Source: a virus. From it: a stretch of 64,000 nt of DNA. The stretch covers positions 27,462 through 91,461 of IMG/VR virus record IMGVR_UViG_3300009157_000018; one strand, given 5' to 3'. Under the pieces are notes generated by a model. The model was given only the letters and a program-made list of their open reading frames with translations, had not been told where the DNA came from and did no database searches. Below, piece after piece: positions 2,109 through 64,000 of the stretch. The translations under genes were made by a program, and so were the position numbers. Within the stretch, counting starts at the first letter, position 1. Every line of letters starts with the position of its first letter.

Positions 2109-5100
2109 CTACACTCTCAACGCATCTCTGATGGCTTGACTGATAATGTTATAGATCATTTGTTGTAGTAGAGCAGGCTCCAAACCATTAAGTTCTACCG
2201 GAACATTGATGACGAAGTTACCTTGAGTTGGATCAAAGTTCAGACCACTTCCACTGGATAATTGGCCACCTAATCCGAACAGCGTTGGCTGAGATATCAA
2301 GGCTGAGAGTGGCCCAGCATTGACTACCAAGTTGCTGAGTAAGGCTTCCTGTTGCAGTCTGGCAGCCTCAAGACGGTTCGCCTCATCCATCTGTTGGGTA
2401 AGTTCTTCGATGGCGATCCTCAGAAGATTCTCGTCAAGACCACGAACTTCTCTCAGGAATGCGGCGTCTTTGATGATCGTGATAATGTCATCTGAAGCTT
2501 CTTTTGTCGCGCCTGGAATCTTGCTTTGGAGTTGTAGGGCTATTTGAATTGCTTGTTGCAATTGGGCACTAGACAAGTCCCCGATGTCTAGGATAGACTG
2601 GTCAGGCCCATTCGCGGCGCCAGTAGGCGTGCTACTAACTCCACCACCACCAGTAAAGGTCCCACCTATATTTGGGGTGCGGAATGCAGAAAGTAGTCGG
2701 CTAAACAGTGCTTGAATTTGCGCGCTAAGGTTGGTCATGACTGATCCAACATTGCTTGTCGTGAAATTCCTTGCTCTCTGGGTGGATGATTCAGGGTCGT
2801 CTCCCTCGAAGAATCCTCCTCGAAGGTCTCGCCGTTCAGTAGTAATGATTGTCCGTATGATAATCGGATTCGCAGCGACAGTGGCGGCAACGCCCGCTTG
2901 GGCACCCGCCAGCGTTACTAGGGCAGCAATCAATGTGCCCACAGCTCCAGAACTGGTACCAGATTGCAGAATAACGCCCAGCAGCGTTTCAGCCAAGGCA
3001 ACATTTCCCTGTCCAGCCGAAGCCAGTTCGGGAATCAGCGTTCGCAATTGATCACCGTAAGCCGCCACGAGTTGAGATGCTTGGCCAGCAGCCTCAGTAA
3101 TACGAGCCTCACCAGCGGTGAACTCATCCATTGAGATTGCGCCTTCCTTCATTCTGTCGAACAGTTTAATCAACTGGTCGCCCTGTTCTTCAGCAAGTCC
3201 ATCAAGAATCAATGTTGCGTCGGCCGCTATTCGTTGTGCAGCAGTAAGTTGTTGAGTAGCATCAGTTGCACCCAAGAGTTGTGCCATGAGTTCTTCGGCA
3301 GATAACGCTTCTCCATCCATACCCTCAGTAACTTCTATTACAGATGCAAACAATTCATCTGAGCTTCTTCCGACTGCTGATATGGCACCATTACTAGCAG
3401 TCATCTCATCAACCAAAACTCCGAAGGTTTCTTCCGTAAGAAGATTGGCCTCTCCTAGCATTTTGATGGTTTCTACCATGGCTCGAAGATTATCTAACTG
3501 AGTTTCGTTTTCGGTACCGGTAATTCTGATTCCAATACTCGACAAATCAGGAAGTTCAATACCGCTCCCAATGCCTGGGATTTCAATTAGTCCTTTTGCT
3601 TGAATGTTCCGAAGTCGCCCCTCAACATGAACAATGGTTTCAGCTATATCATTTGTAACACCAGCTTGTTCTTTCAATGAGGTAATAGCACTAGCCTGAT
3701 CCGCAAGCTGAGTGCCAAGTTCGATGGCGGCGAAGGCAATAAGCAAAGGAAGGAATCGAGCCATGAGCGCCACGGCTCCAGCCAAGGCAGTTCTTAAGCC
3801 ACCAACAACACCGGCCATGACTCCTAGGCTCCTGCTTGCAACTAGTGCTTGCGCCGACAAAGTTGTCATTCCCAACCCAGCTGCCCTTGTAGATACTGCT
3901 AAGAAGTGAGTTGATCGGGCAGCTAAGGTAGCTTCAACTGTAAAGAGTTTTAGGCTGGCTGATCCACTAATGAGCAAAGAGGTTCTAAAGGCCGCGAAAC
4001 TAGTGCTAAGTCCCAATAATCCAGCACCGAACCGCTCCAATATGGCAATGGCTACTAAGGCACCACCAGTGAAAGCCAGGAATCGTGCAGAGAATGAAGT
4101 AAATTCTGGGCCAGCAGATTCCAAGAAGCCAAGGATCGAGTTTCCGAAATTCAGGAATCCCTTGGCTGCTGTTTCCATATCTTCATCAAGACCCAGCAGC
4201 AGAGTTTGTATGCGAGTGGTAAACGACTGGAATCTTCCCGGCAATGTATTGGCGATAATCAAACTGGCCGCCGATAGTTCCCCAGTGCCATCGGAAGCAT
4301 CACGAGCCATCTCTTGCAGGGCAGCTCCGATAGATGCAATAAGTTGATTGTTGAATCCAACAGCTCCAGGGTTCAACGGAGGGATAAGTTCTTGGAGGGC
4401 CAGCCGACCCTGTTCGGCGGTGACTGCACCTGATTGAACTGCTTGGAATAACTGAATAAGGATAGCGTCGGCATCCTTCAGATTGCCAACAGCATCCCGA
4501 GTCTCCACTGCACCTTCAACGATCTTCTCGAAACCCGCAAGTACCTCTGGGTCTGACAATTTAGAAAGGCTGGTCCGCAATAGAGTACCGATTTCTCGAC
4601 CAGACTGACCGGTACGGAAGATTAATTGGTCCATGATGGCGGTCAAGAAACGAAGATCGAAACCGGATACTTGTGCGTTCAATCCAGCTTCAGTCAGACC
4701 GTCTGCTAATTGGGTAATCTCAAAAGCAGAGCGATGGCCCAAGCTCACTACACTGTCTAGGAATGATCTGAATCGTTCCAAAGGAGTAAGATTGCCAAGA
4801 CTATCAATCTGTGCCAGGCCATCAGCCGTGATTCTAAATAACGATGTCAATTGGGCAGCGGCTTGCTGGGTATTTGTCCCAGGTCCAAGAACATTGGTAA
4901 ACTCACCAATGATTTGTTGGAATCCCTCTACATCACCTAGCAGTGCATCGGTGTCTAAAGTTCCAGTGCCTCCATCAGTTTGGATACTTCGTAGAGCACC
5001 GGCCACAAGGTCTGTGACAGCCAAGAGTTCTCGGAAGTCAGTAGCAGTTTCTATAGCAATATCTCCCAAGCTTCGCAGGAAACCATCGGCTTGGGTATCG

Positions 5101-6248
5101 GATAATCCTCCGAGTACCAACCCCAGTCTGGCGGTATCTCGATCAATGTCTCCGATAAGTTGGAATCCAGCACCAATGCCCTCTATGGCGCGGCTAAACG
5201 CGTTATAGATGACCAAGCCTTCAGCGATTCGCAAAGCATGGTGGCTAAAGGTCCTGGTTGCGGTGTCCCACTGAAGCGCATATTGCTTCTGCAGATTCGT
5301 TAGCCGGGTCATTTCGGCGTTCAGTCGTCTGACTCCGGGAGCACCAGCATCGATCTGCCGTTGTACATTTACGATTTGGGCAGCGACATTGCTTTGCTGT
5401 GGTATCTGCCCAGCCACTCCACGCCGCTGCTCACTTGCAAAGAGTCGCTCTTTCTCTTGGATGAGTTTCTGGACGGTGGGGGAAATCGTGGCTTCGAAGC
5501 GCTTTAGGGCAAACCCAGCATTCTGGAACTGGATTTCCAATTGCTTGATCTGAGTGGCTGCACCTGAGAATCGAAGATTCGGGATGGTGCGAGATAGTTC
5601 TTGAAGTTGTTTGTTGACATTAATCAGGTCTTGGATAGTCTTCTGACTACCAAAGCCCCCACCAACACCTAGTTTTTGTTGTGTCGCAAGTTGCCGCTCA
5701 AGATTTCTACGCTGAAGTAGAAGGTCACGACTAGTTTGTAACTGTTGCTGTTTTATCCCCGCAGCGATGCCAGCCAGGAGTGGTTGCAATGCTGCTTTCA
5801 GCCCAGCAGCACTTCCAAACTCTGTCTGCCCCATTAATCCTCGTTGAGCGAGAGTGGTAGAAGCCAGTTGAAGTTGCTTAATCTGAGCTGCTGTTGGAGC
5901 GAGTCCCGCCGCAGCTGATGTGAATACCGGACCTTTTCTGCTTACAATGTCGAACAACTTCTGAAGTTGTGCGAGTTCTCGGTTAAGAGACTTTACCGCA
6001 TCTCGGGCACCGTAAATTTGCTGCCGTCTTGCATTCCAAGCAGCAAGGGACTCATTCTTATCACGAGAAGCACTCAAGTTGCCAACTTGATTTAGTGCAT
6101 CAATGTCAGCTTGGATTTTGGCTGGAGTCCGGGTAGCACGCTGCGCTCTCTGCTCAGCCTGCTGAACTACGCGGAGAAGACTATTGATTTCGCGTTTGGC
6201 TTGGTCAGAGTTAACGCGAACATTTATGAGAATGTCGTCTCGGGGCAT
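2109..6248 (-). CDS. Tail tape measure protein
   Basis: 1379 aa, Ala/Leu/Gln-rich and helical, with a hydrophobic mid-section; sits between the tail chaperones and Dit. Confidence 0.9.
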   Translation of the reverse strand: MPRDDILINVRVNSDQAKREINSLLRVVQQAEQRAQRATRTPAKIQADIDALNQVGNLSASRDKNESLAAWNARRQQIYGARDAVKSLNRELAQLQKLFDIVSRKGPVFTSAAAGLAPTAAQIKQLQLASTTLAQRGLMGQTEFGSAAGLKAALQPLLAGIAAGIKQQQLQTSRDLLLQRRNLERQLATQQKLGVGGGFGSQKTIQDLINVNKQLQELSRTIPNLRFSGAATQIKQLEIQFQNAGFALKRFEATISPTVQKLIQEKERLFASEQRRGVAGQIPQQSNVAAQIVNVQRQIDAGAPGVRRLNAEMTRLTNLQKQYALQWDTATRTFSHHALRIAEGLVIYNAFSRAIEGIGAGFQLIGDIDRDTARLGLVLGGLSDTQADGFLRSLGDIAIETATDFRELLAVTDLVAGALRSIQTDGGTGTLDTDALLGDVEGFQQIIGEFTNVLGPGTNTQQAAAQLTSLFRITADGLAQIDSLGNLTPLERFRSFLDSVVSLGHRSAFEITQLADGLTEAGLNAQVSGFDLRFLTAIMDQLIFRTGQSGREIGTLLRTSLSKLSDPEVLAGFEKIVEGAVETRDAVGNLKDADAILIQLFQAVQSGAVTAEQGRLALQELIPPLNPGAVGFNNQLIASIGAALQEMARDASDGTGELSAASLIIANTLPGRFQSFTTRIQTLLLGLDEDMETAAKGFLNFGNSILGFLESAGPEFTSFSARFLAFTGGALVAIAILERFGAGLLGLSTSFAAFRTSLLISGSASLKLFTVEATLAARSTHFLAVSTRAAGLGMTTLSAQALVASRSLGVMAGVVGGLRTALAGAVALMARFLPLLIAFAAIELGTQLADQASAITSLKEQAGVTNDIAETIVHVEGRLRNIQAKGLIEIPGIGSGIELPDLSSIGIRITGTENETQLDNLRAMVETIKMLGEANLLTEETFGVLVDEMTASNGAISAVGRSSDELFASVIEVTEGMDGEALSAEELMAQLLGATDATQQLTAAQRIAADATLILDGLAEEQGDQLIKLFDRMKEGAISMDEFTAGEARITEAAGQASQLVAAYGDQLRTLIPELASAGQGNVALAETLLGVILQSGTSSGAVGTLIAALVTLAGAQAGVAATVAANPIIIRTIITTERRDLRGGFFEGDDPESSTQRARNFTTSNVGSVMTNLSAQIQALFSRLLSAFRTPNIGGTFTGGGGVSSTPTGAANGPDQSILDIGDLSSAQLQQAIQIALQLQSKIPGATKEASDDIITIIKDAAFLREVRGLDENLLRIAIEELTQQMDEANRLEAARLQQEALLSNLVVNAGPLSALISQPTLFGLGGQLSSGSGLNFDPTQGNFVINVPVELNGLEPALLQQMIYNIISQAIRDALRV

Positions 6249-6550: not shown

Positions 6551-7308
6551 AGGGCCTCCGGTTCGACCATTAAGCCGTAATGGCTCGACGCCAATAAATC
6601 GAGCACAACCGAGCGCAGCTCGTTCACCTCGGAACTGGTCTTAAAGGCAGGCTTAGTACACTTTTCGTCCAAGAAAGTACCGCGACTGATCATCTGGCAG
6701 TTGAATTCCCTCATCCAAATGCCAGCTAGAATGTTTTCGATCAGGGCGGGTTCAGCCTCGACTCGGAGGTCTTCCAAGGAAATCTCCTTAACCTCTTCGT
6801 CCAGTTCCTTCTTGGCGCTCTTCACCGTAGCCCTTACGGATTCCTCGCGTTGCTCCTCGATCTCCTCAACTTCGAGCTCGTGCTGCTCAAGGTCAGCGTT
6901 CGTTATATCAGGGCCTTCAGGATCAGGAACAAAGGTTTGGTCCCGGTTCTCCAGGGATTCACGCTTAATCGCGGTTGTTCGTTCTGCCAATCGGTTATTA
7001 ATCCACAATACCGATAACTGGTCCCGGTTATATTCTTCTAGTTCTTCCATAACAAGAAGTTGCCGTTCGTTAGAATCCGGGTCCAAGAGCTTCTTTCGAA
7101 GTTCTCTAGAGACACGGCGTGCATAGGCTTGGCACATGTCCCGGTCGATTGGGTTCATGGACTTGATCCAAACCGTCATCTCGTTCTCAGTGTCTTTGTC
7201 TAAGACGACGGGCACAGGCTTTAAGAATAGTGTATCGAGTGTAGGTGTTTTCATAGTTCCTTCCAACAAGAAGGGGTGGGTCCCTGAGCGGGGGACCCAC
7301 CCCTTCAT
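6541..7308 (-). CDS. Tail assembly chaperone (G); alternative start at 7254
   Basis: Acidic helical protein ending GCC CTA AAA AAC TAG, upstream of the tape measure gene. Confidence 0.75.
   Translation of the reverse strand: MKGWVPRSGTHPFLLEGTMKTPTLDTLFLKPVPVVLDKDTENEMTVWIKSMNPIDRDMCQAYARRVSRELRKKLLDPDSNERQLLVMEELEEYNRDQLSVLWINNRLAERTTAIKRESLENRDQTFVPDPEGPDITNADLEQHELEVEEIEEQREESVRATVKSAKKELDEEVKEISLEDLRVEAEPALIENILAGIWMREFNCQMISRGTFLDEKCTKPAFKTSSEVNELRSVVLDLLASSHYGLMVEPEALKN
7270..7306. repeat. 15-bp perfect inverted repeat between the two possible chaperone starts
   Basis: GAAGGGGTGGGTCCC-tgagcgg-GGGACCCACCCCTTC. Confidence 0.7.
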
Positions 7309-39300: not shown

Positions 39301-40812
39301 CTACCCAATAGTGAATTCCTCCAATGCCGCATACGATATGGGCATCTTTTCTTTTAGTATACCAGAAATGGCCTCCGCGTACACGCGAATCTCGTATTGA
39401 GCGTCTGGAGTATTTCGTAATTCCAGAAAGTGCATCCAGTTACGGAAGTTGCCCGTCACAATGAATTCAGTATACAACGAGAGCGGGAGGACCATTCTGG
39501 CCATTTCGCGCGCTACACCGTAGGCCAATAGTTTTTCATAGACTTCGAACGAATGATTATAGGCAGCATCGAGCGCCCACTGAGTGCCTTGGTGTAAATA
39601 AGCCATATCATTTGACGGAGCCATGGAGGATTGCTTGTTATTTGGGTCTTGCACTCTGGCTTGGTCGGGAATGTAGAATTCGGGCTCGAATTCCTTGTAT
39701 CGTCCGCTACGCTCGTTATAACTGTTGTGAACAATCAATCCGTTGGCAATAAAGTTGTGATGAGGAGCGGACATCTCGATATCAAATGTCTCTTCCTCTC
39801 CTACTAGATAGGGGGTCTGAACCATCTTCGAGAACATGGACCCGCCTTGGTTGCGCCTGATCGCCAACTTCTGCTCGCCATTGGACTTATGATGATGGCA
39901 ATCGCTACAGACTGGCTTTAGATTATCTCGCACAAGCGCCTTGGTAATATCCGATGCTACTGGGATTACATGGTCTAGGCCGAGAAGGGCATAGGGAAGT
40001 TCAGCGCCACATAGATAGCACCTGTCGATCTCTTGGACCAGAAAAGGCTTCTGTTGATTGGTCCATACCTGTATGCCTGATCTCAGTGATGGTGGAATCT
40101 TATCCCTACTGGTGAGAGTATTCCTAACACCGTGCCTGGCAATGTAATCACCAGTTCGCAACGACCCTGCCTTGGCCCACCCTTCCGGGGTAAGGAAGAC
40201 ATGATCTACCGAAGCCTTCACCCCATGGCCGCTTTCGGTTTCGACAAAAACCAACTCCTTTGTCCCAGATTTCCAAACCTGAGCCATCTTACTGGATTCA
40301 AGAAGTTGAGTACTTTCATTTAGCACTCGGGTCGAAAGGTTTCGGCAAGATGGTAACAGGCGGGTTCGCCCCATAGAGTCGGGTACACCTTCATGCCAAT
40401 TGCGCCAAATCTCTCTGATTGATCTCTTGTGGTTATTCTGGCCAGTTCCCAAGGAAATAAGAGTGTCGCCCGAAAGACAGAAGGTTCGGTGCCGCTGCCA
40501 CTCTCTCGCAACAAAGATCGGACATTTAACATAAAACTGGAACACGACATGTTCGAACGGACTCATATGCTTGTTCATTGCCAGGAATCGGATAAGTCGC
40601 TCGTCAGCGGCTCCTCGCCAGGCGGGAAGAGCTGCACCATTACTAATACGAGCTGCCCGGACTACGGATAGGTCCGACCCCATGGAATCGACTAATTCGA
40701 GTCTCCCCTTGTCTAAGACGCCAGTGCGCGCTTCGTATTCCGGGGTTCCCGGAACTTGCTCTAAGAGTAACCGTTCCAGAGTTGCCGGATCATGGTCTGT
40801 GGGATTGGCCAT
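39301..40812 (-). CDS. thyX: Flavin-dependent thymidylate synthase ThyX, intein-containing
   Basis: H.SPFEH, RHRTF|SYNERSGRY, AREMARMVLP, AQYEIR. Confidence 0.92.
   Translation of the reverse strand: MANPTDHDPATLERLLLEQVPGTPEYEARTGVLDKGRLELVDSMGSDLSVVRAARISNGAALPAWRGAADERLIRFLAMNKHMSPFEHVVFQFYVKCPIFVAREWQRHRTFCLSGDTLISLGTGQNNHKRSIREIWRNWHEGVPDSMGRTRLLPSCRNLSTRVLNESTQLLESSKMAQVWKSGTKELVFVETESGHGVKASVDHVFLTPEGWAKAGSLRTGDYIARHGVRNTLTSRDKIPPSLRSGIQVWTNQQKPFLVQEIDRCYLCGAELPYALLGLDHVIPVASDITKALVRDNLKPVCSDCHHHKSNGEQKLAIRRNQGGSMFSKMVQTPYLVGEEETFDIEMSAPHHNFIANGLIVHNSYNERSGRYKEFEPEFYIPDQARVQDPNNKQSSMAPSNDMAYLHQGTQWALDAAYNHSFEVYEKLLAYGVAREMARMVLPLSLYTEFIVTGNFRNWMHFLELRNTPDAQYEIRVYAEAISGILKEKMPISYAALEEFTIG
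39724..40479 (-). mobile_element. 252-aa intein with an HNH homing endonuclease
   Basis: Begins CLSGDT, block B ASVDHVF, HNH CYLC...DHVIP...NLKPVCSDCH, ends FIANGLIVHN before Ser. Confidence 0.92.
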
Positions 40813-51780: not shown

Positions 51781-54700
51781 ACGCTGTTAAAGTGCCATTC
51801 CCATTCAACTTCAGTGTGATACCATCATCCCAACCAAGCCAATGATATACTCGGTATTTTCCTTTATCATCATCTAGGTAGCCAACAAATCTATATGTCC
51901 CTTTTCTAGGTCGATGCGACGCATCGGGAATATATATCTCTGGATACGAAGGCCAATCTTTCCATTGACAATCTAGCGGGCCTCCCATACACCAACTGCG
52001 CTCAATAGTACCCGGATTCGTAACAGTATTGTTGGACCACGCGGGCGCTGTAAAAACTGTATTGGTTGCAATCATAGCTGCATCCAACTTCTTCATTGCA
52101 TCTATTACCTTGTCGTAGTCGATTATTGCATCTATGTTTATTTTTATCTCAGGCATCTTAGCCATCAAACTTCATCTCCGGTGCTTTAACAACGATTGAT
52201 TTATCAGCACCATCCCAATCACCAACCCAGTCCCACTTCAACTCCATGGAGCTGCCCTGCACCCAGTTTCCTTGGAAATCAATCCTAACTACCTGCATCA
52301 TGCCCTTCGTGTTGTTGATTTGGAAGAAGGCAGGCTCTGCGCCTTTATACTTCCACGAAAAAACAACATTGACGGTGGACTGTGAGGTTGAGATGATAAC
52401 AGAATCAGGAGCACCCAATTCTATTGAATCTGCGTCTACAGTGGTAACTCGACCACTAATATCCTGGACGAGGACTGGCATGCCTGCGCGGGCAAGCAAT
52501 ACACCGTTCAGGATGATAATGAGTGTGATTGTCAGTGCGATAAAAACACTCAGTAGAATAGCGAGAAGATTCTCCAAGCCAGTCAAGGATATGTTACCGG
52601 TGCGAACGGCACGGAATCATCTATCGATTCCAGCTTGAGTTCGGGGTCAGGGGAGCCAGAAATCAATTTGGCCAACTTATCAACACTAGGACCGAGATTC
52701 TTTTGCCCTTCCGGCGTGCTATAAGCTGCAATGACATCAAAAGCCGCGTAGGTGATTTCTCGTTCACGCTTGGCAAACTGATCCCAGCTATCAATGCCGT
52801 CGGGAAGGCTCACCCTCACCATCGGCAAGCTGATATCGCGTACTTCTGTTACATCTGGGAACACTGCCAGTTGGTTTTCCTTGTTGGCCCCCTCGTAGAT
52901 GCGAAGCCCAAACTCCGCATGCCGAGCGCTCCCAGGCGCTATGGGACCAAAGGTAAATCGCTGTGTTTCGTTGATTTCTACTCGGTAGCGCCCACCGCGC
53001 TGGAAAAACTCAATGATTCTCTTACCTGAAGTTGGCTTATCTGGATGAAACGCTCCGTTAGTCGATGCCTTCTTAGACGGCATAAATATTCACCTTTCCA
53101 CCCCCCGCAAATCGAACTTGCATTGTATCCCCCGCCATTAAGTGCGCTCGCTGTAGTTTTTGGCCATTGGGTGTAATCACATCGATTGCACCGGCTGGAG
53201 TTGTGGTATCTGCAGAACCAGCGCCAATAAGGAACTGGTCTGCCATCATGTACAGGTAATACCACTCACCATTCCCATGTTCAGTTTCCAACATCCCACA
53301 TTTCTCATATCTGGCGCAATACCCCCGGCGCAATACCCCCAAGGAACAAAACCCCCAAGGAACAAAGTAAAGCACTTGATCTGCATCCCAATCTGTCCAT
53401 TGAGCACTTTTGGGTCCACCCATACACCATGCTTTTGAGGTAATGAGTCTCGCACACCATCGATCGAATGTTTTACTCCAGCCGTTGAACACAGTAGTTC
53501 CTGCTGCCTCAGTCATACCCCCCACCATTGAAGACAACCCACTTTGGCTCATCCAGCTCTACGATGCGAGGCTTACGATCTAGAGCCGTATCAGTGCCAT
53601 CGAAATACTCACTTGCATAAAAGGTCGGCATCGACTTCATCACGGCTATACCTTCTGTCGTCTTCCAGAAATCTAGAAGAGTCCCCTCAAACTTCGAAAA
53701 TGCCTTGTCGCGCTTGACCATCCACGCAGCCTTTTTCTTTTCTCGTTCTGATTGTCCTCGGCGTACAACAAGCCGAGCTTCCTCTGGATCATGAGCCAGC
53801 ACCACCAAGGTACCATCATCATGGTACGCACTCGAAATACCGTTGCCTTCCCAGATAAAGAGGCGTAGTCGATCAGTCATTTATATATCCTTTCTCCTGT
53901 CTGCGTATCATATTCTCCGTGTGCCTTCTGTAATGTTGGCCTTATTGTGTGTCGTTGGTTAAGCAGGACACTCCAAAGGCTACTCCATCGAGGACACTCA
54001 ACATACCACTCGTCCATGAAACCAATTACACGCACTGTAGGTCGTCCGCACCATTCGCAAAACTTTGGATAGTTCATGGCAACTTCCACGCAATCGCAAG
54101 CAGGATGCCGGAAATAAATCCCAGCATCGAGATGACTACTAGTGGACTGACATCGTTATCTTTCATCGGTCCCTCCTGTTGCCGTAGATGGCCCATGCTA
54201 TCAACACCGCAAGAGTGATACACAGCATCGCCGCGACAATGTATTCATAGAAATCACTCATCCCCATTTATCCATTCCCCACTGTGCTCCTGCTACAAAA
54301 GCTCCAACAATCACAACCAAGCTCAGGATTGCGATCAAACCCAATTGAAATAATGTCGGGTTATCCAACATCCACAGTACTCCCCAGCCCACTAACACGG
54401 CGGCGATGGCCAGTCCAACAAACACTCCAAGCAAGAGTACCACATTCAGGATTCCTCCTGCCAGCGCTGCCAACACCTTCCTCATCTAACAGGCCGTTCC
54501 CGGATCGCCTTCGCTAAGTCCACGATAGCCTCTGCAATAGCCAACTGGCCATAGATTGCTCCCATCGCAGCATGAATCTCCCATCCCATTGTATGGTGGT
54601 TTTTGTATCCGTTCAAAGCAGCCGCTTCTTTACGAGCCAAGTCTGCATTCTCACTCACCACTCGTCCGGCTCACTCCGATGGCGACACGGTGCCATTCTC

Positions 54701-54957
54701 CTGAGATCAGCTAACGACAGCGTGGCTGCCTGGTGAACGTCACCGGCGGAATGATGGTGATCGATCATGACCCCACCCAGGCTCAAAACCAAATGATCAT
54801 CATGCTCGTTGCCGAGGTGCTGCCCAATCTCCACCATTCTTTCTATCGCTTCAGCGAGCGAGAGATAGTCCCCGATCATATTGCCCGAGTCCGTATCCCA
54901 CAGCTCCCACCACAGTAGGTCGGAGTTTGACTCCATCTCGAACTGTTCTTCAGTCAT
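51767..54957 (-). other. Run of small hypothetical genes
   Basis: ORFs 51767-52168 and 53073-53552 (both WCMGGP), 52158-52586 (N-terminal TM), 52583-53083, 53509-53880, 53877-54089, 54258-54485 (2 TM), 54655-54957. Confidence 0.6.
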
Positions 54958-54963
54958 GCCAGC

Positions 54964-54992
54964 ACTGTACTCCCCGGCGAGCTCGTTGTCAA
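54964..54992 (-). promoter_or_regulatory. Leftward promoter, leaderless for ATG 54957
   Basis: CACTTGACA-17-TACAGT-gctggc-ATG. Confidence 0.7.
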
Positions 54993-55696
54993 GTGCAACT
55001 TTCTGCCTGGCGGCTCCACGGCAAGTCGATTTTTGCAAAAGAGCCCCCTAGTTATCCATTAGCATGCAATTCCTTACCTGGCATCCTCAATTTCCGTTAA
55101 CAAGCATCCTAAACCTTCCTAGACCCTTATTTTCCTCTCTATGCAGACTTAGTACTAATAAGTTACCCACTATACTAATCAAACAACACTATTATCCCAC
55201 CTTACCCCAAAAAGCTCGGATTAGCACGGTTTCCACTCCAAGGCATAGCCGATTCCGTGGAAAGCGACCGGTGCGTGTCCGCGAGCGTGGACCGAGCGGG
55301 AACCGCTCGGAGCGGAGGGCGTGGAAAAACCTGGCGCGCCCAGGAAAGGTACGGGAGGCCGGCGCCGCAGGCGCCGAGCTCCCCGGAAACGGTATCCGGG
55401 GGGTCACAGGACGGCCGCTAGCGGCCGTCCGGGACCGAAAGGGTACCTAGGGACCAGCTGCCGCATTGCCGAGCTGCCTGGCGGCATCATGGCGTGGAAT
55501 TGGCGTACCGCGCCATCTTGCGGCGGTCGGTGGGCGGCTCGATGATGGGTACCTCACGGCCGCCCAGACACAGGGCGACCGCCATATACCGGACACACGG
55601 AGCACCAAGTAGATACCGGGCGAGAGCCGCAGCCATGATAGGCAGCCGCCGATGTGGGCGCAGGGTCTAGTACGGGACCGACCGGGGACATACAGG

Positions 55697-55940
55697 GACT
55701 AGGGCGGATCGGCTCAGCCGATCCTGCGACGCGCACCATAGGCGCGCCTATATGCCTACCGCGACCGCGATACACCGATACGCCACTCCTACCTATACCG
55801 CTCCGACGCAAGGACGGACCGGACGGGCTCTTAGAGCCGATGGTACGGGTCACACGGCGCACCGATCACGGACTAACTGCGGCAGGGTTGGGCGCATCCT
55901 ATGGCCGGACCCGGATCGGCTGCGCCGATCCGCCCTAGTC
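55697..55940. repeat. 28-bp inverted repeat (1 mismatch) bounding a ~245-bp imperfect palindrome
   Basis: GACTAGGGCGGATCGGC(T/G)CAGCCGATCC at 55697-55724 and inverted at 55913-55940. Confidence 0.85.
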
Positions 55941-55941
55941 A

Positions 55942-56420
55942 CCGGGCACCGATCCTAGTCGGATCGGTGCCCGCTACCCTAGAACGGAGCGATACATACC
56001 ATGACCGCTAACAGCACTCCCCCTGTCGTTGTGGAGTCTCAGGACGCCGATGATGACCGGATGGTGTCAGTACGATTGTCGCGTGAGGAGCAGTCGTACA
56101 TTACGGGCCTAGTCCGCGCCGACCTTTCTAACGCGCCGACGATGCCCAGTATCCCCAAAGACGGTACCGATGCTGTCAAACTCCATTCGGAGTTTCAGGC
56201 TTACATCGAAGCCGAAGCCCATTGGCGCACGGTTGAAGCGCCGAAGATTGGCCTAGCAGATCGGATCGAGGCGGCACAGCCACGGACCCGGATCACCAAG
56301 CCAAAGACGGGCGCCGCCGATGATGGCGCCAAAGAGTCTACCGGCGCCGATGATGGCGCCGAAGCCACCAAGTAATTAGTAAGGGTAGCGGGCACCGATG
56401 CGATTAGGATCGGTGCCCGG
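55942..56420. repeat. 39-bp inverted repeat (2 mismatches) flanking gene 56001-56375
   Basis: CCGGGCACCGATCCTA(G/A)TCG(G/C)ATCGGTGCCCGCTACCCT at 55942-55980 and inverted at 56382-56420. Confidence 0.85.
56001..56375 (+). CDS. Hypothetical protein, first rightward gene
   Basis: SD GGAG, ATG; ADDGA repeated twice at the C-terminus. Confidence 0.65.
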   Translation: MTANSTPPVVVESQDADDDRMVSVRLSREEQSYITGLVRADLSNAPTMPSIPKDGTDAVKLHSEFQAYIEAEAHWRTVEAPKIGLADRIEAAQPRTRITKPKTGAADDGAKESTGADDGAEATK

Positions 56421-56480
56421 ATTAGTGCTGCCACAGCTCCAGGTTTAGCCGGCCAGGGCCGGCTAGAATAGGAGAATATT

Positions 56481-59400
56481 GTGGAATATCCTCGTAAGGT
56501 TGTTCGTTCTACTGATTGTGGTTCGTTCGTTGTTCTCACTGGTGTAGTTCCTAATCCTTACCCGAATACGGAAGGAAAGAATACTGCACTAGTGGTTACT
56601 GGTTCTCTCTATGATGAGAACGGTGACTTTATCAAGAAGGTCCAGGGCGATAACTTTGACGCTATTGTGCGTATCGGTACCGTTTGGCTCCACGAGTTGG
56701 CCGTTGCTGATGCTAGGCGCGATAACGATAAAGCGCGACTATTCGCGCTGGAAGCTCAGCCGTGGACTTTCTAAGGAAACACGGTACGGAAACTTGGATT
56801 CTCTCCAAAGGTCCGGCCAGGGAAGATATCAAACTGGTTAGTAAGCGGCTACTGTTGAATAGCCCGCGACTAACTATGGTTGATTCCCATAATCGGGTAT
56901 GGTTGAGAATCAAGTAGGTATTAGGTACGCTGGGCAGCACTAATCCGGGACACTTTCAACCCGGAAGGTAGTAAAGGAGAGAACAATGTTAGGATTTAGG
57001 TATCCTAGCAAGAAGGCTCTCCGCGAGGCTATAGCAGCTGGCAAACTAGTTAGGTTTAGTTCCCATGTCCAGGATAGTTCGGTCGTTCGGCCGGAATATA
57101 CTGGTGATGATGGTAACTACCCTGTTGTAGGTCCAGATGCCTATAACTCGCGGAAGTGGTACGCTACTCTGGAAGTGAAGGACAACCTGGTTGTTCGTAT
57201 TCTAGAGTAACGAAAGTCCACTCCTAAACGAAAATGGTGGTAGGTAAAGGAAAACGCTTTACCCTAACTACGCCGTCTTATCCCAGGGTTGGCAGAATGT
57301 CGGACTACGGGTGCCGATCGAGCCTGTAATACCTTTTAGGGTACGGTAGAGCCACCATTCCAAACTAAAAGGAGAATACTAATGCCTAGGTCAAAGCGAC
57401 CAAAGGAATACTATTGGAAGATTCGTGTTCCTTCTCGCCATTCTAGCGCGGTGTTCGATATGCTGCGATATGATGGCGGAAAGGTCGTCGATTATTCCCA
57501 TAGTACTATTGAGGAAGATGATAGTATCTTTTATGACAACTCCCAGGGCTTCGATAACTTGATTATCAGCTCGGATCGGCCGCCTACGATTGCTAGGTGG
57601 AAGAGTTTCGGAATAGATGTTATGGTTGGCGATAGGCCCTGGCCGGAAGATATATTCCACGACGGCTATGGTGATCCCTATTTCCAAACTGATCGCTACT
57701 CCGTTAGGTAGTAGCGTCGATCATAGCCGATTAGGAAAAACTAGTCGGCTATGATCGGCGTTTGTGCCGAAAGTGTATTAGGAGAAACGAAAAGGAGAAC
57801 AGTAGTGATTACTGTAAACCTCAAGCGAAACCCTAATGGCAACTTCGTTATCCAGGATGAGAACGAAACCAAAGTTGCCGAGTGTCTTTCTTGGAAAGAT
57901 GCTAAAGTCCATGTCCAGGTTAGAAAGCCTGATGTTGTTCGGCTAAAGTTCTTCCCTGGCTGCGCGGCTACTATTTCTTTGGCTACTTTGCTAAAGAGTA
58001 GAAGCCCACTCTTATAGGTGTGGGCTGCGCGGTACTGGTGTTTTACGGAATACTGTTTATCCTGGTAATAGTATTCCTGACAAGTATAGTCTAGTAGTCT
58101 GACACTATGGCCGGATATTCTGAGGGGTTATCCGGCCATAGTGCTAGTTTACTAGGAGTAAACTAGATTCTTGGTTCGGCTAGTAACAGGAAGCATAGTC
58201 CCCGCATCAGCGGTAGGAATGCTTTTAGGATGTCGCCCGCCGAAGTAATGATAGGCTAGGTAGCAGGTGATAGCACGCCAAGTAACCAACCCAATAGGAG
58301 AATCGTTATGGAAACGGAAAGGCCGTTTATTGTGGAAGTCAAGGATTCCGATAGTGAAAACTATGTTCGGAATCAGCTGACTTTCATTAGTGCCGAATCC
58401 GCAGATAACTGGGGATTCAACTTTCTGTTCCGAGACTTTCGGGCAGAAGATTATCGCGTTGTTGATATTCGCACCGGCGATATTGTTATCGAAGGGACGA
58501 ATCCATGAAAGCAAAGCGTACACCAGTACATCTAAAGGGTAAGAGTTACCCTGGACAGTTTCCGAATAATCCTACTAAGCCTAAAAAGCCTAGTGGCTTT
58601 AGGAAGAAGCCATAATGACTCTACAATCACCAACTATGGGCCAGCTTCGTGATCAATGGGAACACGATAATCCTGGTTCAGTAGCCGATACGGCTATTCC
58701 ACAAACTTGGGCAGATAAAGTATTCGAAGCTGTAAAGGAATGGCCTTTCGGTTTCGTATGGGGTTATCTTCCAGGTTCTGTATTCGGTAGTCCAGTACCG
58801 CTTACCGATTCGGCTAAAGCGATATACGAAAGACTACCGGCCAATCTCCGATAACAATACTTGGTGCGATCATGCGAAAGATCGTAAATCGGTAAGTGGG
58901 ACGGTCCGAAACGACCGCTAGGCAGGGAACCCCTGCTGGCAAGATTACCAGCCAAGAAAACCAGGTAGTTGGAACTAAACGGTTGGCGCAGACCTAACAA
59001 TGAGATTAGGTTAGGGAGCTTTCCTAGGAGTTTCGGACTAAATCAGGCCGAAAGCCAACCGCGAATGGGGGAATGGGATACAAATTGCGTTACGGCGTTG
59101 ATCTATTCGGCAAAAGAACGACAATAGGTAAGCCCTATAGGTCGCTCCGTTCGGCCAGGCAAGTTGCCCGTTCGTTTGCTGGTATTAGGCGCGGTTATCG
59201 GGCCAGGATATTCTATGGTCCTGATCGTAAAACAAGAGTGTACTACTGGCATGATATGTACGGAGTACATTCGGTAGAGTTTCCAATACACAAAAGACCT
59301 CGGCTCTCCTAGGGTAGGGGAACCGAGGTTTTTTTTCGTTTTAAATTAGAAACGAAAGGATAGATAACTATGAAAGATGGAGAGTTACGAGCTGCTGTCC

Positions 59401-60701
59401 TCGCAATGGAAGAAAGCAGCTGGTTAGACTCCACGGATGGTATTCCTATTCCTGATGAATTCGAGAAAATAGCTCGAAAAGCATTTCGAATGGGATATCA
59501 GAAATCATTGCTCGATGTTTCACAGAGCGGTGGTTTCGATAAGTTTATCAAGCGTGGTATCGAAAAAGTGATAGAACAGTATGAATAACAGTAAGCGTAG
59601 ACGGGAAGCGAAAGCTGCCCAAAAGGTTGTTGGTAATAATGCGATGGCACCAACAACTAAGAATCTTACTCGGTTGATGAAGCAGAAAGGTACTAATCGA
59701 GCTCAGCGCCGACATCACCCTAAGATTACCGTAGCGCAAATGCTGGATGAAATTGAGAGATTCGAAATGCTTTGGAACAATGGCAAAACCGACTAAACCG
59801 AAGAGCAAGTCTGCGCGGAATAAGAATGGTGGTAGGATGACTCCTCTTCCGCGAGGACGAAAGCCTACTCCTTCTTTCCTAACGAAAATCCGTTCAGAAC
59901 GAAAAACCGATATCTACCAGTTCTATCGTGGAGTAGATTGCGAATGAAAAGCGAAGTTGCTGCTTCGTTTGTAATCGCATTTCTGTTCGCAGTGATTCTG
60001 TTGACACCACTACTCTTAGTGAAGTAAACACCCCGATGTTAGCGGGTTAGGAAACTAGCCCGCTACGATCGGCGTGCTTGCGCCGAAAAGCAAGAATCAA
60101 ATGGAATGGAGGAAGCCAAAATGGGAATCGACGAAATAGCCGAGTCGGTAGGTATGTGCACCTCCCATTGTGAGCATGGTGGGGTCTGTATATTAGATGC
60201 TGGGCATGAGAGTACCCACGACTCAGAGTATTGTCGCTGGACAAACAAGGAAGCTATCTCAAAGGAGGAAGCCGACAAGCGGACAGCACAAATGCCTGGT
60301 GGTGAGTCAGTTCTCGCCATCGAGCGATTGATCTATGGAGACGATTGAAATGTTGGGCGGAGGGCCCGCCTATTCGGCAGAGGAAATCGAAGATTTCGTT
60401 GATCGAATGGGAATAGAGATTGGCCATGATGAGACTTGTTCTTATGGGTTGAAAGCGACTACGCTAGAAATCCTGGAACATTTCATTACTCGTGACCCAG
60501 AATGTGAGTACTTTGACTAAGTATGTTGTGCTTGACGCGACTAACTCTGATCCTGTCTACGGATTACTCGACGACGCTATTGTCGTCGAGATTCCCGATG
60601 GCGTGGAGCCAGACGAGTTTGTCAAGTCTGGTAACTACGAGCCTACTGGGCGAGTAGAACAAATGCCTATTCACGAAAGTTGGATTACTGATGGAGATTG
60701 A
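56481..60701 (+). other. Cluster of small hypothetical genes, probably early / host takeover
   Basis: ORFs 56481-56774, 56986-57210, 57382-57711, 57805-58017, 58308-58508, 58615-58854, 59073-59312, 59370-59588, 59581-59796, 60121-60348, 60335-60520, 60492-60701; many have strong AGGAG SDs and long spacers. Confidence 0.7.
59297..59336 (+). terminator. Intrinsic terminator
   Basis: ACCTCGG...CCGAGGT followed by a T run. Confidence 0.8.
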
Positions 60702-60947
60702 TCCGATTCGGTTTATTCCAGGATTGTGCTTATGGCTGGGCATCCTTCTTCTAAGAACGAATGAAGTGGTGTGGAGCTGGGTATGGTTCTTGGATAAGTT
60801 TATGGGCGTATTCTTTATTGTGACTGGAAGCCTAATGGCAATCCAGTTCGTCCTGAACTAGAACCCCGATGTGTGGGCAGAATCTTACAGATTGGATTCT
60901 GCCCACCGATCGGCGCTTTAGCCGAAACTAAAACTAAGGAGACAACA

Positions 60948-61751
60948 ATGCGGTGTTATTCCGATTTCGAGCGATGGCTCGCGCAAGGAAAAACTAAGCG
61001 TTCCAGAATTACTAGGAAGTATAACTACCGTATCAGGATCAGGGAGCAGGACGGTGATATTGGAGTCGAACTCTATAACACCACTGTTCTGACTTTCCAT
61101 CCTGACGGTAGTATTACTTTGGATAATGGTAACTGGACTTCTGCCTCTACTAGAAATGTAATGAACTGGTTCCTACCGTATCCGGTAATGGTGTTTATTG
61201 CTGATGGTATGTGGGGCATTAGGCTAGAATCAGGTTCGAGTTGGCATGATGATCTTGTCTACCATAATCCGGTAACGGTATCTTACTCACATAGCAAAGG
61301 TGCTGCTCAGCGCAGTATTTGGAAGATGGATAAGCCTTACGAGAACTTCGGTGAGAAGTACAAAGAACGGAAACAGATAAAGGGCCGAATCTATCGCTAT
61401 GCAAAAAGGTATATGGCGTTACTACAAACCGGCCAACTTCCTGTTCCGAGCTCTACTGATTGTTGGGCTTGTCTCCAGGAATCTGTGATGATCCCTGATT
61501 CAGGATACTGGTACTCGGTTTTCAACGATAATACAAGGAAACTTCCTTCACAACATTTAAAGGAGCATGTAGAAGATAAACAGTTCGTACCGTCGATGCT
61601 TATCAATGCCCTCGGACAATCCAACTGGTCTAAGAGTAATATTGATAAAGCCTTGACAAACGAATTTGGCAAGATGAAACATACCCATCAGATATACCAG
61701 AATCTCAACTACTATTTGAGTAGGTGGTTGAGAGATAGAATCCTCGGGTAG
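60948..61751 (+). CDS. Hypothetical protein
   Basis: SD AAGGAG; LYNTTVLTFHPDGSITLDNGNW...T motif; DCWAC. Confidence 0.65.
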   Translation: MRCYSDFERWLAQGKTKRSRITRKYNYRIRIREQDGDIGVELYNTTVLTFHPDGSITLDNGNWTSASTRNVMNWFLPYPVMVFIADGMWGIRLESGSSWHDDLVYHNPVTVSYSHSKGAAQRSIWKMDKPYENFGEKYKERKQIKGRIYRYAKRYMALLQTGQLPVPSSTDCWACLQESVMIPDSGYWYSVFNDNTRKLPSQHLKEHVEDKQFVPSMLINALGQSNWSKSNIDKALTNEFGKMKHTHQIYQNLNYYLSRWLRDRILG

Positions 61752-62309
61752 GTTATCCCGACGAGAGTGGCTGAACTAATCGGCCACTCCGGTCGGCATA
61801 AATTGCCGAAGAAAAGGAAGAAGAATGCCATATCCATATAGCGATGATGGTGATCCGTTCATTCGAAAGAATTGGGTGGCTCTTATCGCTCTAGGCATTG
61901 CAATTCTTGCTTTGCTGGTAAAGTAATGGCTGAAAGCGTATCGTTCGTTTGCACGAAATGCGACCAGGCGATAAAGCCTGATGAAGCCAGGGAATTTATA
62001 TCCGATCCTGGTGATAGAGTATGGCAGTACGATCATGTTGGCGAATGCCCAATAAAACGTGCCCATAAGTATAACTATGGATCAGACTATACCGGGCCTG
62101 TGGATGCCATCCGCAAGCACGCCAAAGAAAGTTACGGCAAATCCGAATGACAATTCGAGAAGCCCTAGACAAAGTTTGTATAGGCTGGAGCATTCAAGCT
62201 CCAGAGAATCAAGGACTCCATAGTTGGCGCTGTCAGTATCCTGACCGATACGGCAAATGCCAGCATTACCAAGAGTTCCTAGACGATTTGGTGATGGCTG
62301 TTGCCTCAC

Positions 62310-62338
62310 TTGACAAAGATGACACCCAATGATACAGT
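62310..62338 (+). promoter_or_regulatory. Rightward promoter
   Basis: CACTTGACA-17-TACAGT. Confidence 0.7.
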
Positions 62339-62391
62339 ACCCGAAACTGAGCAAGGATGCTCTATCTCAGAGGAAAGGAGGTACCTAGTCT

Positions 62392-62709
62392 TTGACTAAC
62401 ACAACTAGTTCGTCTGCGCGTAAGCGTGGCCGACCTCGGCGGGAGTCAAACCCTGCCAACCACGGTTATTCCGTGGTTAGTGAACTGCGTAACGACCTTC
62501 AGGATATGATTGGTGCGTGCCGGACTTGTGGCAAGCCTGTTCATTCTGTTGCTGGTCTTGCGAAGCAGATCGGAATTTCTTCGATTACGCTGAGCAACTT
62601 CCTCAAGGATAAGCGTGGCCTGAGCCAGCCTATTCTTGATAAGGTGTACGCTTATGTCTGGGCACAGAAGAATGCGCCCGCAGTTACCGATACGCCTGTC
62701 GAGGCGTAA
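62392..62709 (+). CDS. XRE-like HTH DNA-binding protein with AT-hook
   Basis: RKRGRPRR, CRTC, SVAGLAKQIGISSITLSNFL. Confidence 0.7.
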   Translation: MTNTTSSSARKRGRPRRESNPANHGYSVVSELRNDLQDMIGACRTCGKPVHSVAGLAKQIGISSITLSNFLKDKRGLSQPILDKVYAYVWAQKNAPAVTDTPVEA

Positions 62710-62834
62710 GTCGAAAACCGTGCCCCGGCGGTATATCCGGGGCTAATAAAAATCTCCCGATGAGTGCGGCGGATATGTGTCTATCCGCCGCACCGATCGG
62801 CAGGTTTGACTGTCGAACCGTAGAAAGGAAAGAT

Positions 62835-63881
62835 ATGCTCGAAGGGTATATCGGTCAAGCCGATAGGCTAGGAGCTCTTGTAGCGACTATTCAATCGGCC
62901 AAAAAGACTGGCAAGCCCTTACCGAATATGCTCTTTCTTGGTAAAAGCGGTCATGGTAAGACACGGCTTGCCCAACTCGTTGCTAAAGAGATGGGTAAGC
63001 CGTTGTCTGTTCTCCATGGCCCGAGTGTTATTGATAGATCGGATGTTGCTAAGGCTGTATTAGATGCCAAAGACGGCATTCTGTTTATTGATGAAACTCA
63101 TGCTCTGAGTAAGAGACTGTGCGAGGATTTGTATACTGTCATTGACAGTGGTACAATCACCGTCCAGGAATCTACTCCATCCTACTACGATACCTATATC
63201 CAAGTATGGTATCAAGAGGATTTGCCTGAGGACCGCCGTTCAGAATGGACCGGGCCAGGGAAGTATCTTATGCCTAGTGTTGTAGGTCATGAGTATACTG
63301 ACAAAATCCTGGACCTGAACCTAACTGTAATCGGTGCTACAACGGATGAAGGTTTGTTGCCATCACCGTTCCTACGCCGATTGAGTGGCTTGAAGGTATA
63401 TCTTCGAACATACCGACTTGAAGAAATGGTAGAGATTGGTAGGATGCGAGCTGCCGAGGATGGTGTTCGGATTGGCAACCCGGCCATGATAGAATTGGCT
63501 ATCCGATCCCGATTCAATCCGAGACGAATGAAGCAAACAGTTGACATTGCTGCTGCGTTTGCCATCCGTGATGGTAAAAAGACAGTAACGAAGGCTATTG
63601 CTTCTGAGTCTTTGAAGTTATCGGGAGTTGACGGATGGGGACTCGAACCTCCGCACCGCTCGATCCTAGATGTATTGTATGCTTCTGGCGGATTGAGTAG
63701 GGCGAGTTTGAGTCAAAGACTCGGGATTCCTTCTAGGAATCTTGATCTTCATTGGTCTGAGTTGCTAGAACAAGGACTTGTTCAAATCGACACTAGACAC
63801 AGACTTACCACCAAGGGTAAAGTTATTTGGGAAACCCTGAGTTCTCAGGCGTGGTCCCTACTAGTAAGGAAAGGAAATTAG
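62835..63881 (+). CDS. RuvB-like Holliday junction branch-migration AAA+ ATPase
   Basis: LEGYIGQ, Walker A GKSGHGKT, ILFIDETH, TVIGATT..GLL, RSR.NPR, GVD..GL winged helix. Confidence 0.8.
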   Translation: MLEGYIGQADRLGALVATIQSAKKTGKPLPNMLFLGKSGHGKTRLAQLVAKEMGKPLSVLHGPSVIDRSDVAKAVLDAKDGILFIDETHALSKRLCEDLYTVIDSGTITVQESTPSYYDTYIQVWYQEDLPEDRRSEWTGPGKYLMPSVVGHEYTDKILDLNLTVIGATTDEGLLPSPFLRRLSGLKVYLRTYRLEEMVEIGRMRAAEDGVRIGNPAMIELAIRSRFNPRRMKQTVDIAAAFAIRDGKKTVTKAIASESLKLSGVDGWGLEPPHRSILDVLYASGGLSRASLSQRLGIPSRNLDLHWSELLEQGLVQIDTRHRLTTKGKVIWETLSSQAWSLLVRKGN

Positions 63882-64000
63882 GCATTGAGTCTCGTTTACA
63901 CGAACTCTGATATGCCAGCTCCACCGGGACTGATTCCTAGGCTGGATAATTATCTCAAGGCTCTTAGCCTTGAGAATGATCCGGCTGCCAGGATTGCAGT

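Follow-up and report, generated by a model that had tools for sequence, protein, structure and literature searches.

The DNA analyzed here is the final 64,000 bases (positions 27,462 to 91,461, hereafter the window) of IMG/VR virus record IMGVR_UViG_3300009157_000018, a single contig of 91,461 bases, and the subject of this analysis is a repeated structured element that lies in the gaps between rightward genes toward the end of this window. Positions refer to the window unless they are marked as record positions. The record is linear by its IMG/VR class and 73% complete as estimated by CheckV; it is a fragment, and the missing part may hold more copies of the element. It carries genes of a tailed phage (major head protein, terminase, ribonucleotide reductase, thymidylate synthase, and DNA methyltransferase) together with 29 tRNA genes. 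Genes point leftward up to about 55.4 kb of the window and rightward from 56.0 kb to the window end, and the initial 6.8 kb of the record form another rightward block that is closed by a canonical terminator. The rightward genes are probably early genes. Most of them are tiny and unrecognizable (26 of 30 neighboring proteins are without a Pfam match), and those that can be recognized encode a RuvB-like ATPase, an AAA/MoxR-type ATPase, a vWA protein, an RF-1-domain protein, and an Xer-like tyrosine recombinase. Canonical terminators, each a stem followed by a U tract, are found in the element-bearing blocks at 59290-59340 and at record 6759-6800, with 8-T and 7-T tracts.

A sequence-only reading of the window had described five copies of a double hairpin between early gene cassettes, and all five are present at the positions where it placed them. 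The strict 3' motif, GATCGGC-N4-14-GYCGAA, is seen four times where 0.07 occurrences are expected, a count reached by none of 100 shuffles. A looser regular expression applied to the whole record adds the fifth window copy and also a sixth copy at the other record end (record 1235-1289); the count of five thus holds for the window and not for the record. Six is itself a lower bound, the record being about 73% complete, and the phage has at least six copies. Every copy lies on the plus strand, in a gap between plus-strand genes. Alignment of the six copies with MAFFT placed them nearly in structural register (alignment A2), and a covariance model built from this alignment (R1) scores the copies at 61.5-74.5 bits and their reverse strands at 21-31 bits. 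Scanning the record and 14 other loci with this model, a check that the sequence-only reading had proposed, returned no further copy and nothing unrelated above 15 bits. A permissive scan of both strands of 54000-64000 against Rfam 15 (E up to 1) gave zero matches, in agreement with the earlier judgment that this is not a described family and leaving unrealized the outcome, a match to a known Rfam family, that had been named as speaking against it. The element is a real, statistically solid, and previously undescribed structured repeat.

Table 1. Coordinates and folds of the six element copies and coordinates of the inverted repeats in 55697-56949 (window positions unless marked record; P0, outer helix; nt, nucleotides; bp, base pairs)
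Feature	Position	Strand	Model R1 (bits)	Minimum free energy (kcal/mol)	P0 and upstream stop codon	Lower stem	Internal loop and upper stem	3' motif	Next start	Remarks
Copy 1	57707..57771	+	67.7	-45.1	from 57707, spans double stop TAG TAG 57709-57714	UCGAU 57717-57721 / AUCGG 57754-57758	upper stem capped by GAAAAA loop	GCCGAA 57766-57771	GTG 57805	26 pairs, 4 G-U
Copy 2	60024..60087	+	71.9	-35.8	GUAA-A-CAC / GUG-C-UUGC, spans stop TAA 60025-60027	CCGAU 60033-60037 / AUCGG 60068-60072	2x2 loop; 11-bp upper stem, GAAA tetraloop	GCCGAA 60082-60087	ATG 60121	
Copy 3	60858..60926	+	68.0	-36.2	CUAGA.C / G.UUUAG, spans stop TAG 60859-60861	CCGAU 60866-60870 / AUCGG 60909-60913	2x2 loop; 12-13-bp upper stem	GCCGAA 60921-60926	ATG 60948	inverted repeat I7
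Copy 4	61747..61810	+	66.2	alternative fold	GGUAG-G-UUAU / AUAA-A-UUGCC, spans stop TAG 61749-61751; worth -9.2 kcal/mol	CCGAC 61758-61762 / GUCGG 61792-61796 (covarying)	2x2 loop; 10-bp upper stem, one U-G	GCCGAA 61805-61810	ATG 61826	14 nt between 3' motif and ATG
Copy 5	62750..62817	+	61.5	-37.2	AAAUCU / AGGUUU; sole copy not beside a stop codon (stop TAA 62707-62709)	CCGAU 62757-62761 / AUCGG 62796-62800	2x2 loop; 12-bp upper stem	GUCGAA 62812-62817 (variant; alternative hairpin kept via G-U pair)	ATG 62835 (RuvB-like gene)	inverted repeat I6; extra 7-bp hairpin 62721-62744
Copy 6	record 1235-1289	+			GUAAAAG / UUUUUGC	covarying	GAAA tetraloop			
Inverted repeat 1	55697-55724 / 55913-55940									28 nt, 96%
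Inverted repeat 2	55942-55980 / 56382-56420									39 nt, 95%; brackets first rightward gene
Inverted repeat 3	56416-56432 / 56933-56949									17 nt, 100%; brackets second gene

From outside to inside, the element folds as a rod made of an outer helix (P0), a C.C mismatch, a conserved 5-bp helix (P1, CCGAY/RUCGG), a 2x2 internal loop, a variable helix of 10-13 bp (P2), and a terminal loop. The full rod (P0+P1+P2) comprises 23-26 base pairs, and the 2x2 loop is present in five of the six copies. When the lower stem, the internal loop, and an upper stem of 11 pairs are counted, 99% of the cells in the alignment are paired; changes on both sides affect 10 of the 16 pairs, and 23 cells carry double changes. 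None of 500 shuffles reaches any of these measures, and slid registers pair only 22-48%. In copy 4 (61758) and in the sixth copy, the lower stem closes with C-G in place of U-A. These results, with the model scores, strongly support the earlier proposal that structure rather than sequence is conserved, and the covariation of the outer pair noted there also stands. The register given for copy 1 had to be corrected: the CCGAT at 57727 that had been taken for its base sits within the upper stem, and the real lower stem is UCGAU/AUCGG (Table 1).

The third, outer helix has a different sequence in every copy and takes in the upstream stop codon in five of the six. It arises from pairing of the 5' flank with a U-rich stretch (UUUGU, UUU, UUUUU) that lies between RUCGGC and GYCGAA. 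The sequence-only reading, which had reported no U tract, was correct that no terminator tail is present but not about the stretch after the stem, which is U-rich and paired in P0. When the 5' and 3' flanks were permuted among copies, the true combination ranked sixth of 720 by folding energy. The minimum-energy fold is the full rod in five copies, at -36 to -45 kcal/mol, and is an alternative fold in copy 4. Across the six folds there are about 13 G-U pairs, and the summed fold energy is -226.6 kcal/mol for the plus strand compared to -194.9 kcal/mol for the minus strand, a difference of about 32 kcal/mol. The terminal loops are not conserved among the copies; GNRA loops occur as GAAA tetraloops in copies 2 and 6.

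The alternative fold is a hairpin in which UCGGC pairs with GCCGA. It is possible in all six copies, in one of them (copy 5) with a G-U pair, and the energy gap between the two folds is 0.2-8 kcal/mol, which bears out the earlier suggestion that two alternative folds exist. C55 never varies, yet five copies leave it mismatched in the rod, where it faces C in four and U in one, and GCCGA is invariant except for one change that itself yields a G-U pair. The sole partner found for C55 and GCCGA is the alternative hairpin. Both folds therefore seem to be under selection. The common orientation of the copies, the strand bias of the G-U pairs, and the GNRA-type loops favor sense-strand RNA over folded plus-strand DNA. 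We consider it likely that the element is a structured sense-RNA element kept by selection in two alternative folds.

The position of the element relative to the flanking genes is also regular. The stop codon of the upstream gene lies 4-6 nt upstream of CCGAY in five of the six copies and 47 nt upstream in copy 5; the sequence-only reading had recognized this proximity and had counted four such copies. In the same five of six, the distance from the last base of CCGAY to the first base of the stop codon is 12-14 nt. The rod begins 1-2 nt 5' of the upstream stop in four copies and, in copy 1, 2 nt within the last sense codon. The Shine-Dalgarno sequence and the start codon of the next gene are located 8-25 nt beyond the element, outside both folds, and the stretches from GYCGAA to the start codon have no common motif except the Shine-Dalgarno sequence. 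At copy 5, a direct repeat, GTCGAA(AA)CCGT, at 62710-62723 and 62812-62823 brackets the copy and its extra hairpin. Both repeats contain the rare GTCGAA variant of the 3' motif, and the arrangement suggests that a segment was duplicated locally or that an insertion left a scar.

Most likely, the element represents a known kind of signal in a new form, that is, a predicted cutting or stabilizing signal of multi-gene messages. The specific version that we favor, tentatively, is that of a putative intercistronic processing and stability site of the type of the ribonuclease III (RNase III) sites in phages T7 and SP82. The element would act as RNA: the host polymerase would transcribe the rightward genes into a multi-gene message, and the sense-strand rod within it would serve as the substrate of a double-strand-specific endoribonuclease, most simply the host RNase III, cutting at or near the internal loop as at the early sites of T7. 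A protective 3' hairpin directly past the stop codon would remain on the upstream message. Downstream, the freed 5' end (RUCGGC) would pair anew with the invariant GCCGA, and the resulting small 5'-terminal hairpin would shield the downstream message from 5'-end-dependent decay. The polycistronic RNA would in this way be split into separately stabilized cistron groups. Such processing would explain where the element lies, how long the rod is, why it contains an internal loop and lacks a U tract, why C55 and GCCGA are invariant, and why the two folds exclude each other; a rod that starts at the stop codon is placed where a protective 3' hairpin would be expected.

Like RNase III sites, all six copies separate cistrons that are read in the same direction, lie on their sense strand, and offer a helix of about 20 bp or more that, in five of six, contains an internal loop. 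In rod length and interrupted helix the element appears to resemble classical phage RNase III sites, without a terminator tail. Of the two RNA functions raised by the sequence-only reading, processing fits best, given the sense orientation, the G-U pairs, the strand bias, and the GAAA loops, whereas antitermination is possible and not favored. The closest comparison, from general knowledge, is with the RNase III sites R0.3 to R1.3 of T7 early mRNA. In both cases a single polycistronic early transcript carries several copies in the gaps between its genes. The copies are irregular hairpins that extend over about two helical turns, contain an internal loop, and lack a U tract; they have sequence in common around the loop and differ in their stems. 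Cleavage in T7 leaves the hairpin on the upstream message, where it acts as a 3' stabilizer, a feature that is only proposed here. The two differ in that the element has no sequence similarity to the T7 sites, contains a near-invariant 5-bp helix, has a stop codon in its outer helix, and carries a conserved 3' motif offering a second, mutually exclusive hairpin; its cleavage, moreover, is only predicted. SP82 early mRNA also contains repeated structured sites, which, as described in PMC4838370 (its references 19 and 20), were characterized as substrates of the B. subtilis RNase III and are recognized by this host enzyme with narrow specificity. The likeness to SP82 is drawn from that description.

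Several observations weigh against the processing reading. The evidence base consists of paralogous copies within one genome, and copy 1 has no internal loop. RNase III normally needs no conserved 5-bp sequence such as CCGAY/RUCGG, and an invariant P1 may therefore indicate that a sequence-specific protein is involved in its place; a processing mechanism alone does not account for the conservation of the P1 sequence. Neither an RNase III nor a protein with a double-stranded RNA-binding domain is encoded in the record, which is 73% complete, and the enzyme would therefore be that of the host. Finally, a distant relative (G001, below) has abutting genes without the element, which is therefore not essential to the lineage.

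The conservation of the P1 sequence amid varying surroundings speaks for a binding site of a sequence-specific phage or host protein on the CCGAU/AUCGG duplex. Such a site could serve antitermination or an RNA chaperone, or could be a DNA operator held in common with the palindromes of the divergent control region. As the sequence-only reading had noted, the CCGAT...ATCGG core does occur there, in the same orientation, in palindromes at 55943-55973 and 56389-56419, and GATCGGC/GCCGATC is found in palindromes at 55705-55724 and 55912-55931. In duplex DNA, however, the halves of P1 lie 30-40 bp apart with variable spacing, beyond any dimeric DNA binder, so that binding would need the folded strand. 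Pfam detects no RNA-binding or helix-turn-helix family in 26 neighboring proteins, the sole match, GP3_package, being below threshold. The lambda nut (boxA/boxB) and HK022 put sites are likewise cis-acting structured RNAs in early transcripts, but they occur once per operon and are sequence-conserved in their loops or stems, in contrast to the at least six copies of the element (six sites per block), whose loops, unlike boxB, are not conserved. We regard a protein-binding site as unlikely. The regular spacing from the stop codon would instead be explained by a translation-sensing switch, in which the terminating ribosome melts P0 and P1 and RUCGGC then pairs with GCCGA; the fold would report full translation of the upstream gene and thereby lead to cleavage, decay, or translation of the next cistron. 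A ribosome with a stop codon in its A site reaches about 12-14 nt, matching the distance from the stop codon to the end of CCGAY in five copies, and both folds are apparently conserved and close in energy, with the alternative fold being the minimum in copy 4. Such a switch appears quite unlikely, as the Shine-Dalgarno sequence and the start codon stay outside both folds and no direct output is visible, copy 5 is far from its stop codon, and the constant spacing may only reflect tight genome packing. A further form of this switch, in which a bistable RNA reads upstream translation to the stop and decides both the cutting of the junction and the stability of the next cistron, would constitute a new translation-coupled processing switch, repeated at each cistron-group boundary of a phage early operon; we find this quite improbable as well.

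Stable hairpins situated directly past stop codons, with the short U runs following P1 by 2-4 nt, could also suggest a transcription attenuator or a factor-dependent terminator at which the host polymerase pauses or stops, partitioning the block. As in intrinsic terminators, the hairpin is G+C-rich, but no U tract stands directly past it: the U runs are paired in P0, and the tail beyond the full rod is A-rich. A terminator scan finds no site at any copy, although canonical terminators are used in the same blocks, and the copies do not have the makeup of ordinary terminators, whose behavior the sequence-only reading had listed as a possible outcome against it. No sigma-70 promoter-like site is present at any copy, and no promoter follows any copy, so that stopping there would silence the downstream genes, which in copy 4 begin almost immediately. 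Attenuation would also leave the conserved P1 and GCCGAA unexplained, and we judge it quite improbable. No phage RNA polymerase or sigma factor was found in the record, although PF00940 gave no match in the control genomes either, so that the negative for this family carries no weight. Considered as DNA, the element might be a recombination site, either an attC-like folded single strand used by the phage tyrosine recombinase or a repeat similar to the PeSL of T4-type phages that shuffles cassettes by homologous exchange. The conserved base helix, mismatched center, and variable top, with structure conserved more than sequence, echo the layout of integron attC sites, and, as with attC, each site follows a gene unit at its 3' end, the units all running in one direction. 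A tyrosine recombinase gene is encoded on the same strand at record 4721-5533, 3.4 kb from copy 6, and the direct repeat described above flanks copy 5 and its extra hairpin. This recombinase (270 amino acids, plus strand), the only tyrosine recombinase of the record, is Xer-like, however; its best matches are to the XerA, XerC, and XerD models, all below their cut-offs, and it scores 55.7 bits against the 265-bit cut-off of the integron-integrase model TIGR02249. Unlike attC, the element has no associated integron integrase or attI and no R-box consensus, its conserved base being CCGAY...RTCGGC; its units hold one to many genes, and its strand-specific G-U pairs and GNRA loops fit RNA. Sequence shared over 5-7 nt is too short for homologous exchange, and a sigma-70 promoter, required of a PeSL (PMC4122927), is lacking. 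The attC-like site suggested by the sequence-only reading thus found no support, and a recombination site of either kind seems very unlikely.

The element also does not pass as a member of several known families. For attC, there is no IntI nearby and no R''/R' core (RYYYAAC...GTTRRRY). PeSL (PMC2839356, PMC4122927) are similar in being repeated stem-loops with a conserved base and a variable stem, located between small variable non-structural genes; by definition they combine the stem-loop with a promoter of the sigma-70 or Mot type (PMC4122927), and the element has no promoter at any copy, nor, in copy 4, with 14 nt to the ATG, any room for one. The ESAS of Cluster K mycobacteriophages (PMC3203893) are variable-spacer inverted repeats, upstream of some non-structural genes, in one orientation and with no assigned function. 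Their arms have a 17-bp consensus and abut a 13-bp start-associated motif that holds the ribosome-binding site (PMC3203893); the arms of the element vary and compensate, and its conserved 3' motif is upstream of the Shine-Dalgarno sequence. A link to cyanobacterial HIP1 was dismissed, GCGATCGC being found once in the record.

No cultured relative of this phage was found: megablast of the phage database gave no match, the terminase gave none at E = 1e-5, and the head protein reaches about 25% identity at best. Uncultured relatives are represented in protein databases by 21 RuvB homologues (43-93% identity) and about 70 head proteins (44-96%), and close relatives are indicated by a RuvB at 93% (P0001), a vWA protein at 85% (P0120), and a capsid at 96% (P0046). 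Relatives of the RuvB-like protein were not found in the phage database, in IMG/VR, or by searching with P0014, and a RuvB search of metagenome and genome collections returned only distant or cellular RuvB. A capsid search of IMG/VR yielded seven relative loci, and the RuvB region is contained in G001 alone. This 69-kb relative has a capsid 55% identical and a RuvB 42% identical to those of the record, and its genes overlap start to stop; the MoxR-like, vWA, and 267-amino acid genes are missing from it, and the element was not found in it. The element appears to be specific to a narrower lineage, since G001 is without it. In G001 a tyrosine recombinase is encoded about 1.1 kb upstream of the RuvB gene (L244 878-1708), and both phages thus have a recombinase in the same module. 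Pattern scans of IMG/VR gave, among the matches listed, single chance matches on G+C-rich contigs, mostly without a hairpin. A stricter pattern returned 21 loci, 12 of which are one conserved 54-nt stretch. We take this stretch to be the coding N-terminus of an open reading frame (ORF) recognized as a TnpB/IS605-type gene, and it was rejected as an instance of the element because it is transposase coding sequence.

The part of the window from 55.7 kb on contains further structured sequence. Within 55697-56949 there are three adjoining units, each enclosed between the arms of a separate long inverted repeat (Table 1), and the arms of inverted repeats 1 and 2 are palindromes with a CCGAT/ATCGG or GATCGGC/GCCGATC core, as in the elements. 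Possible roles of these inverted repeats are those of long-range RNA processing stems, operators, or recombination sites. Among the rightward genes, the other long gaps (57211-57381, 58018-58307, and 58855-59072) are highly structured as well. Examples are two consecutive stems, of 15 bp (58103-58143) and 10 bp (58144-58166), and a domain spanning about 57233-57360, closed by AATGGTGG/CCACCATT; the CCGAY/GCCGAA motif is absent from all three.

Elsewhere in the record, we considered and rejected a wrap-around of the linear, 73% complete sequence. There is no in-frame join between the final ORF of the window (from TTG at 63885) and the ORF for an AAA ATPase, open at its 5' end, at record 1-927, and no terminal repeat is present at the record ends. 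The RF-1 (peptidyl-tRNA hydrolase, GGQ) domain, matched with E = 1e-19, forms a stand-alone 119-amino acid protein at record 3670-4029 on the plus strand. The thymidylate synthase ORF (503 amino acids, window 39301-40812, minus strand) has a match to an HNH endonuclease in the middle of the protein, at residues of about 236-327, which suggests an inserted homing endonuclease or an intein-like element.

The early operons of phages are usually described in terms of promoters and terminators, and little is known beyond T7 and a few model phages about the cutting and differential stabilizing of their multi-gene messages. The element described here is a cleanly defined, covariation-backed RNA motif from an uncultured phage lineage without a cultured relative, with two exclusive folds that are both apparently selected and with a geometry tied to the upstream stop codon. 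If the proposed cleavage and refolding are true, it would provide synthetic operons with a compact, portable part that insulates cistrons, and would serve as a marker of operon structure in metagenomic phages. Should translation sensing be true, the element would represent a new regulatory principle.

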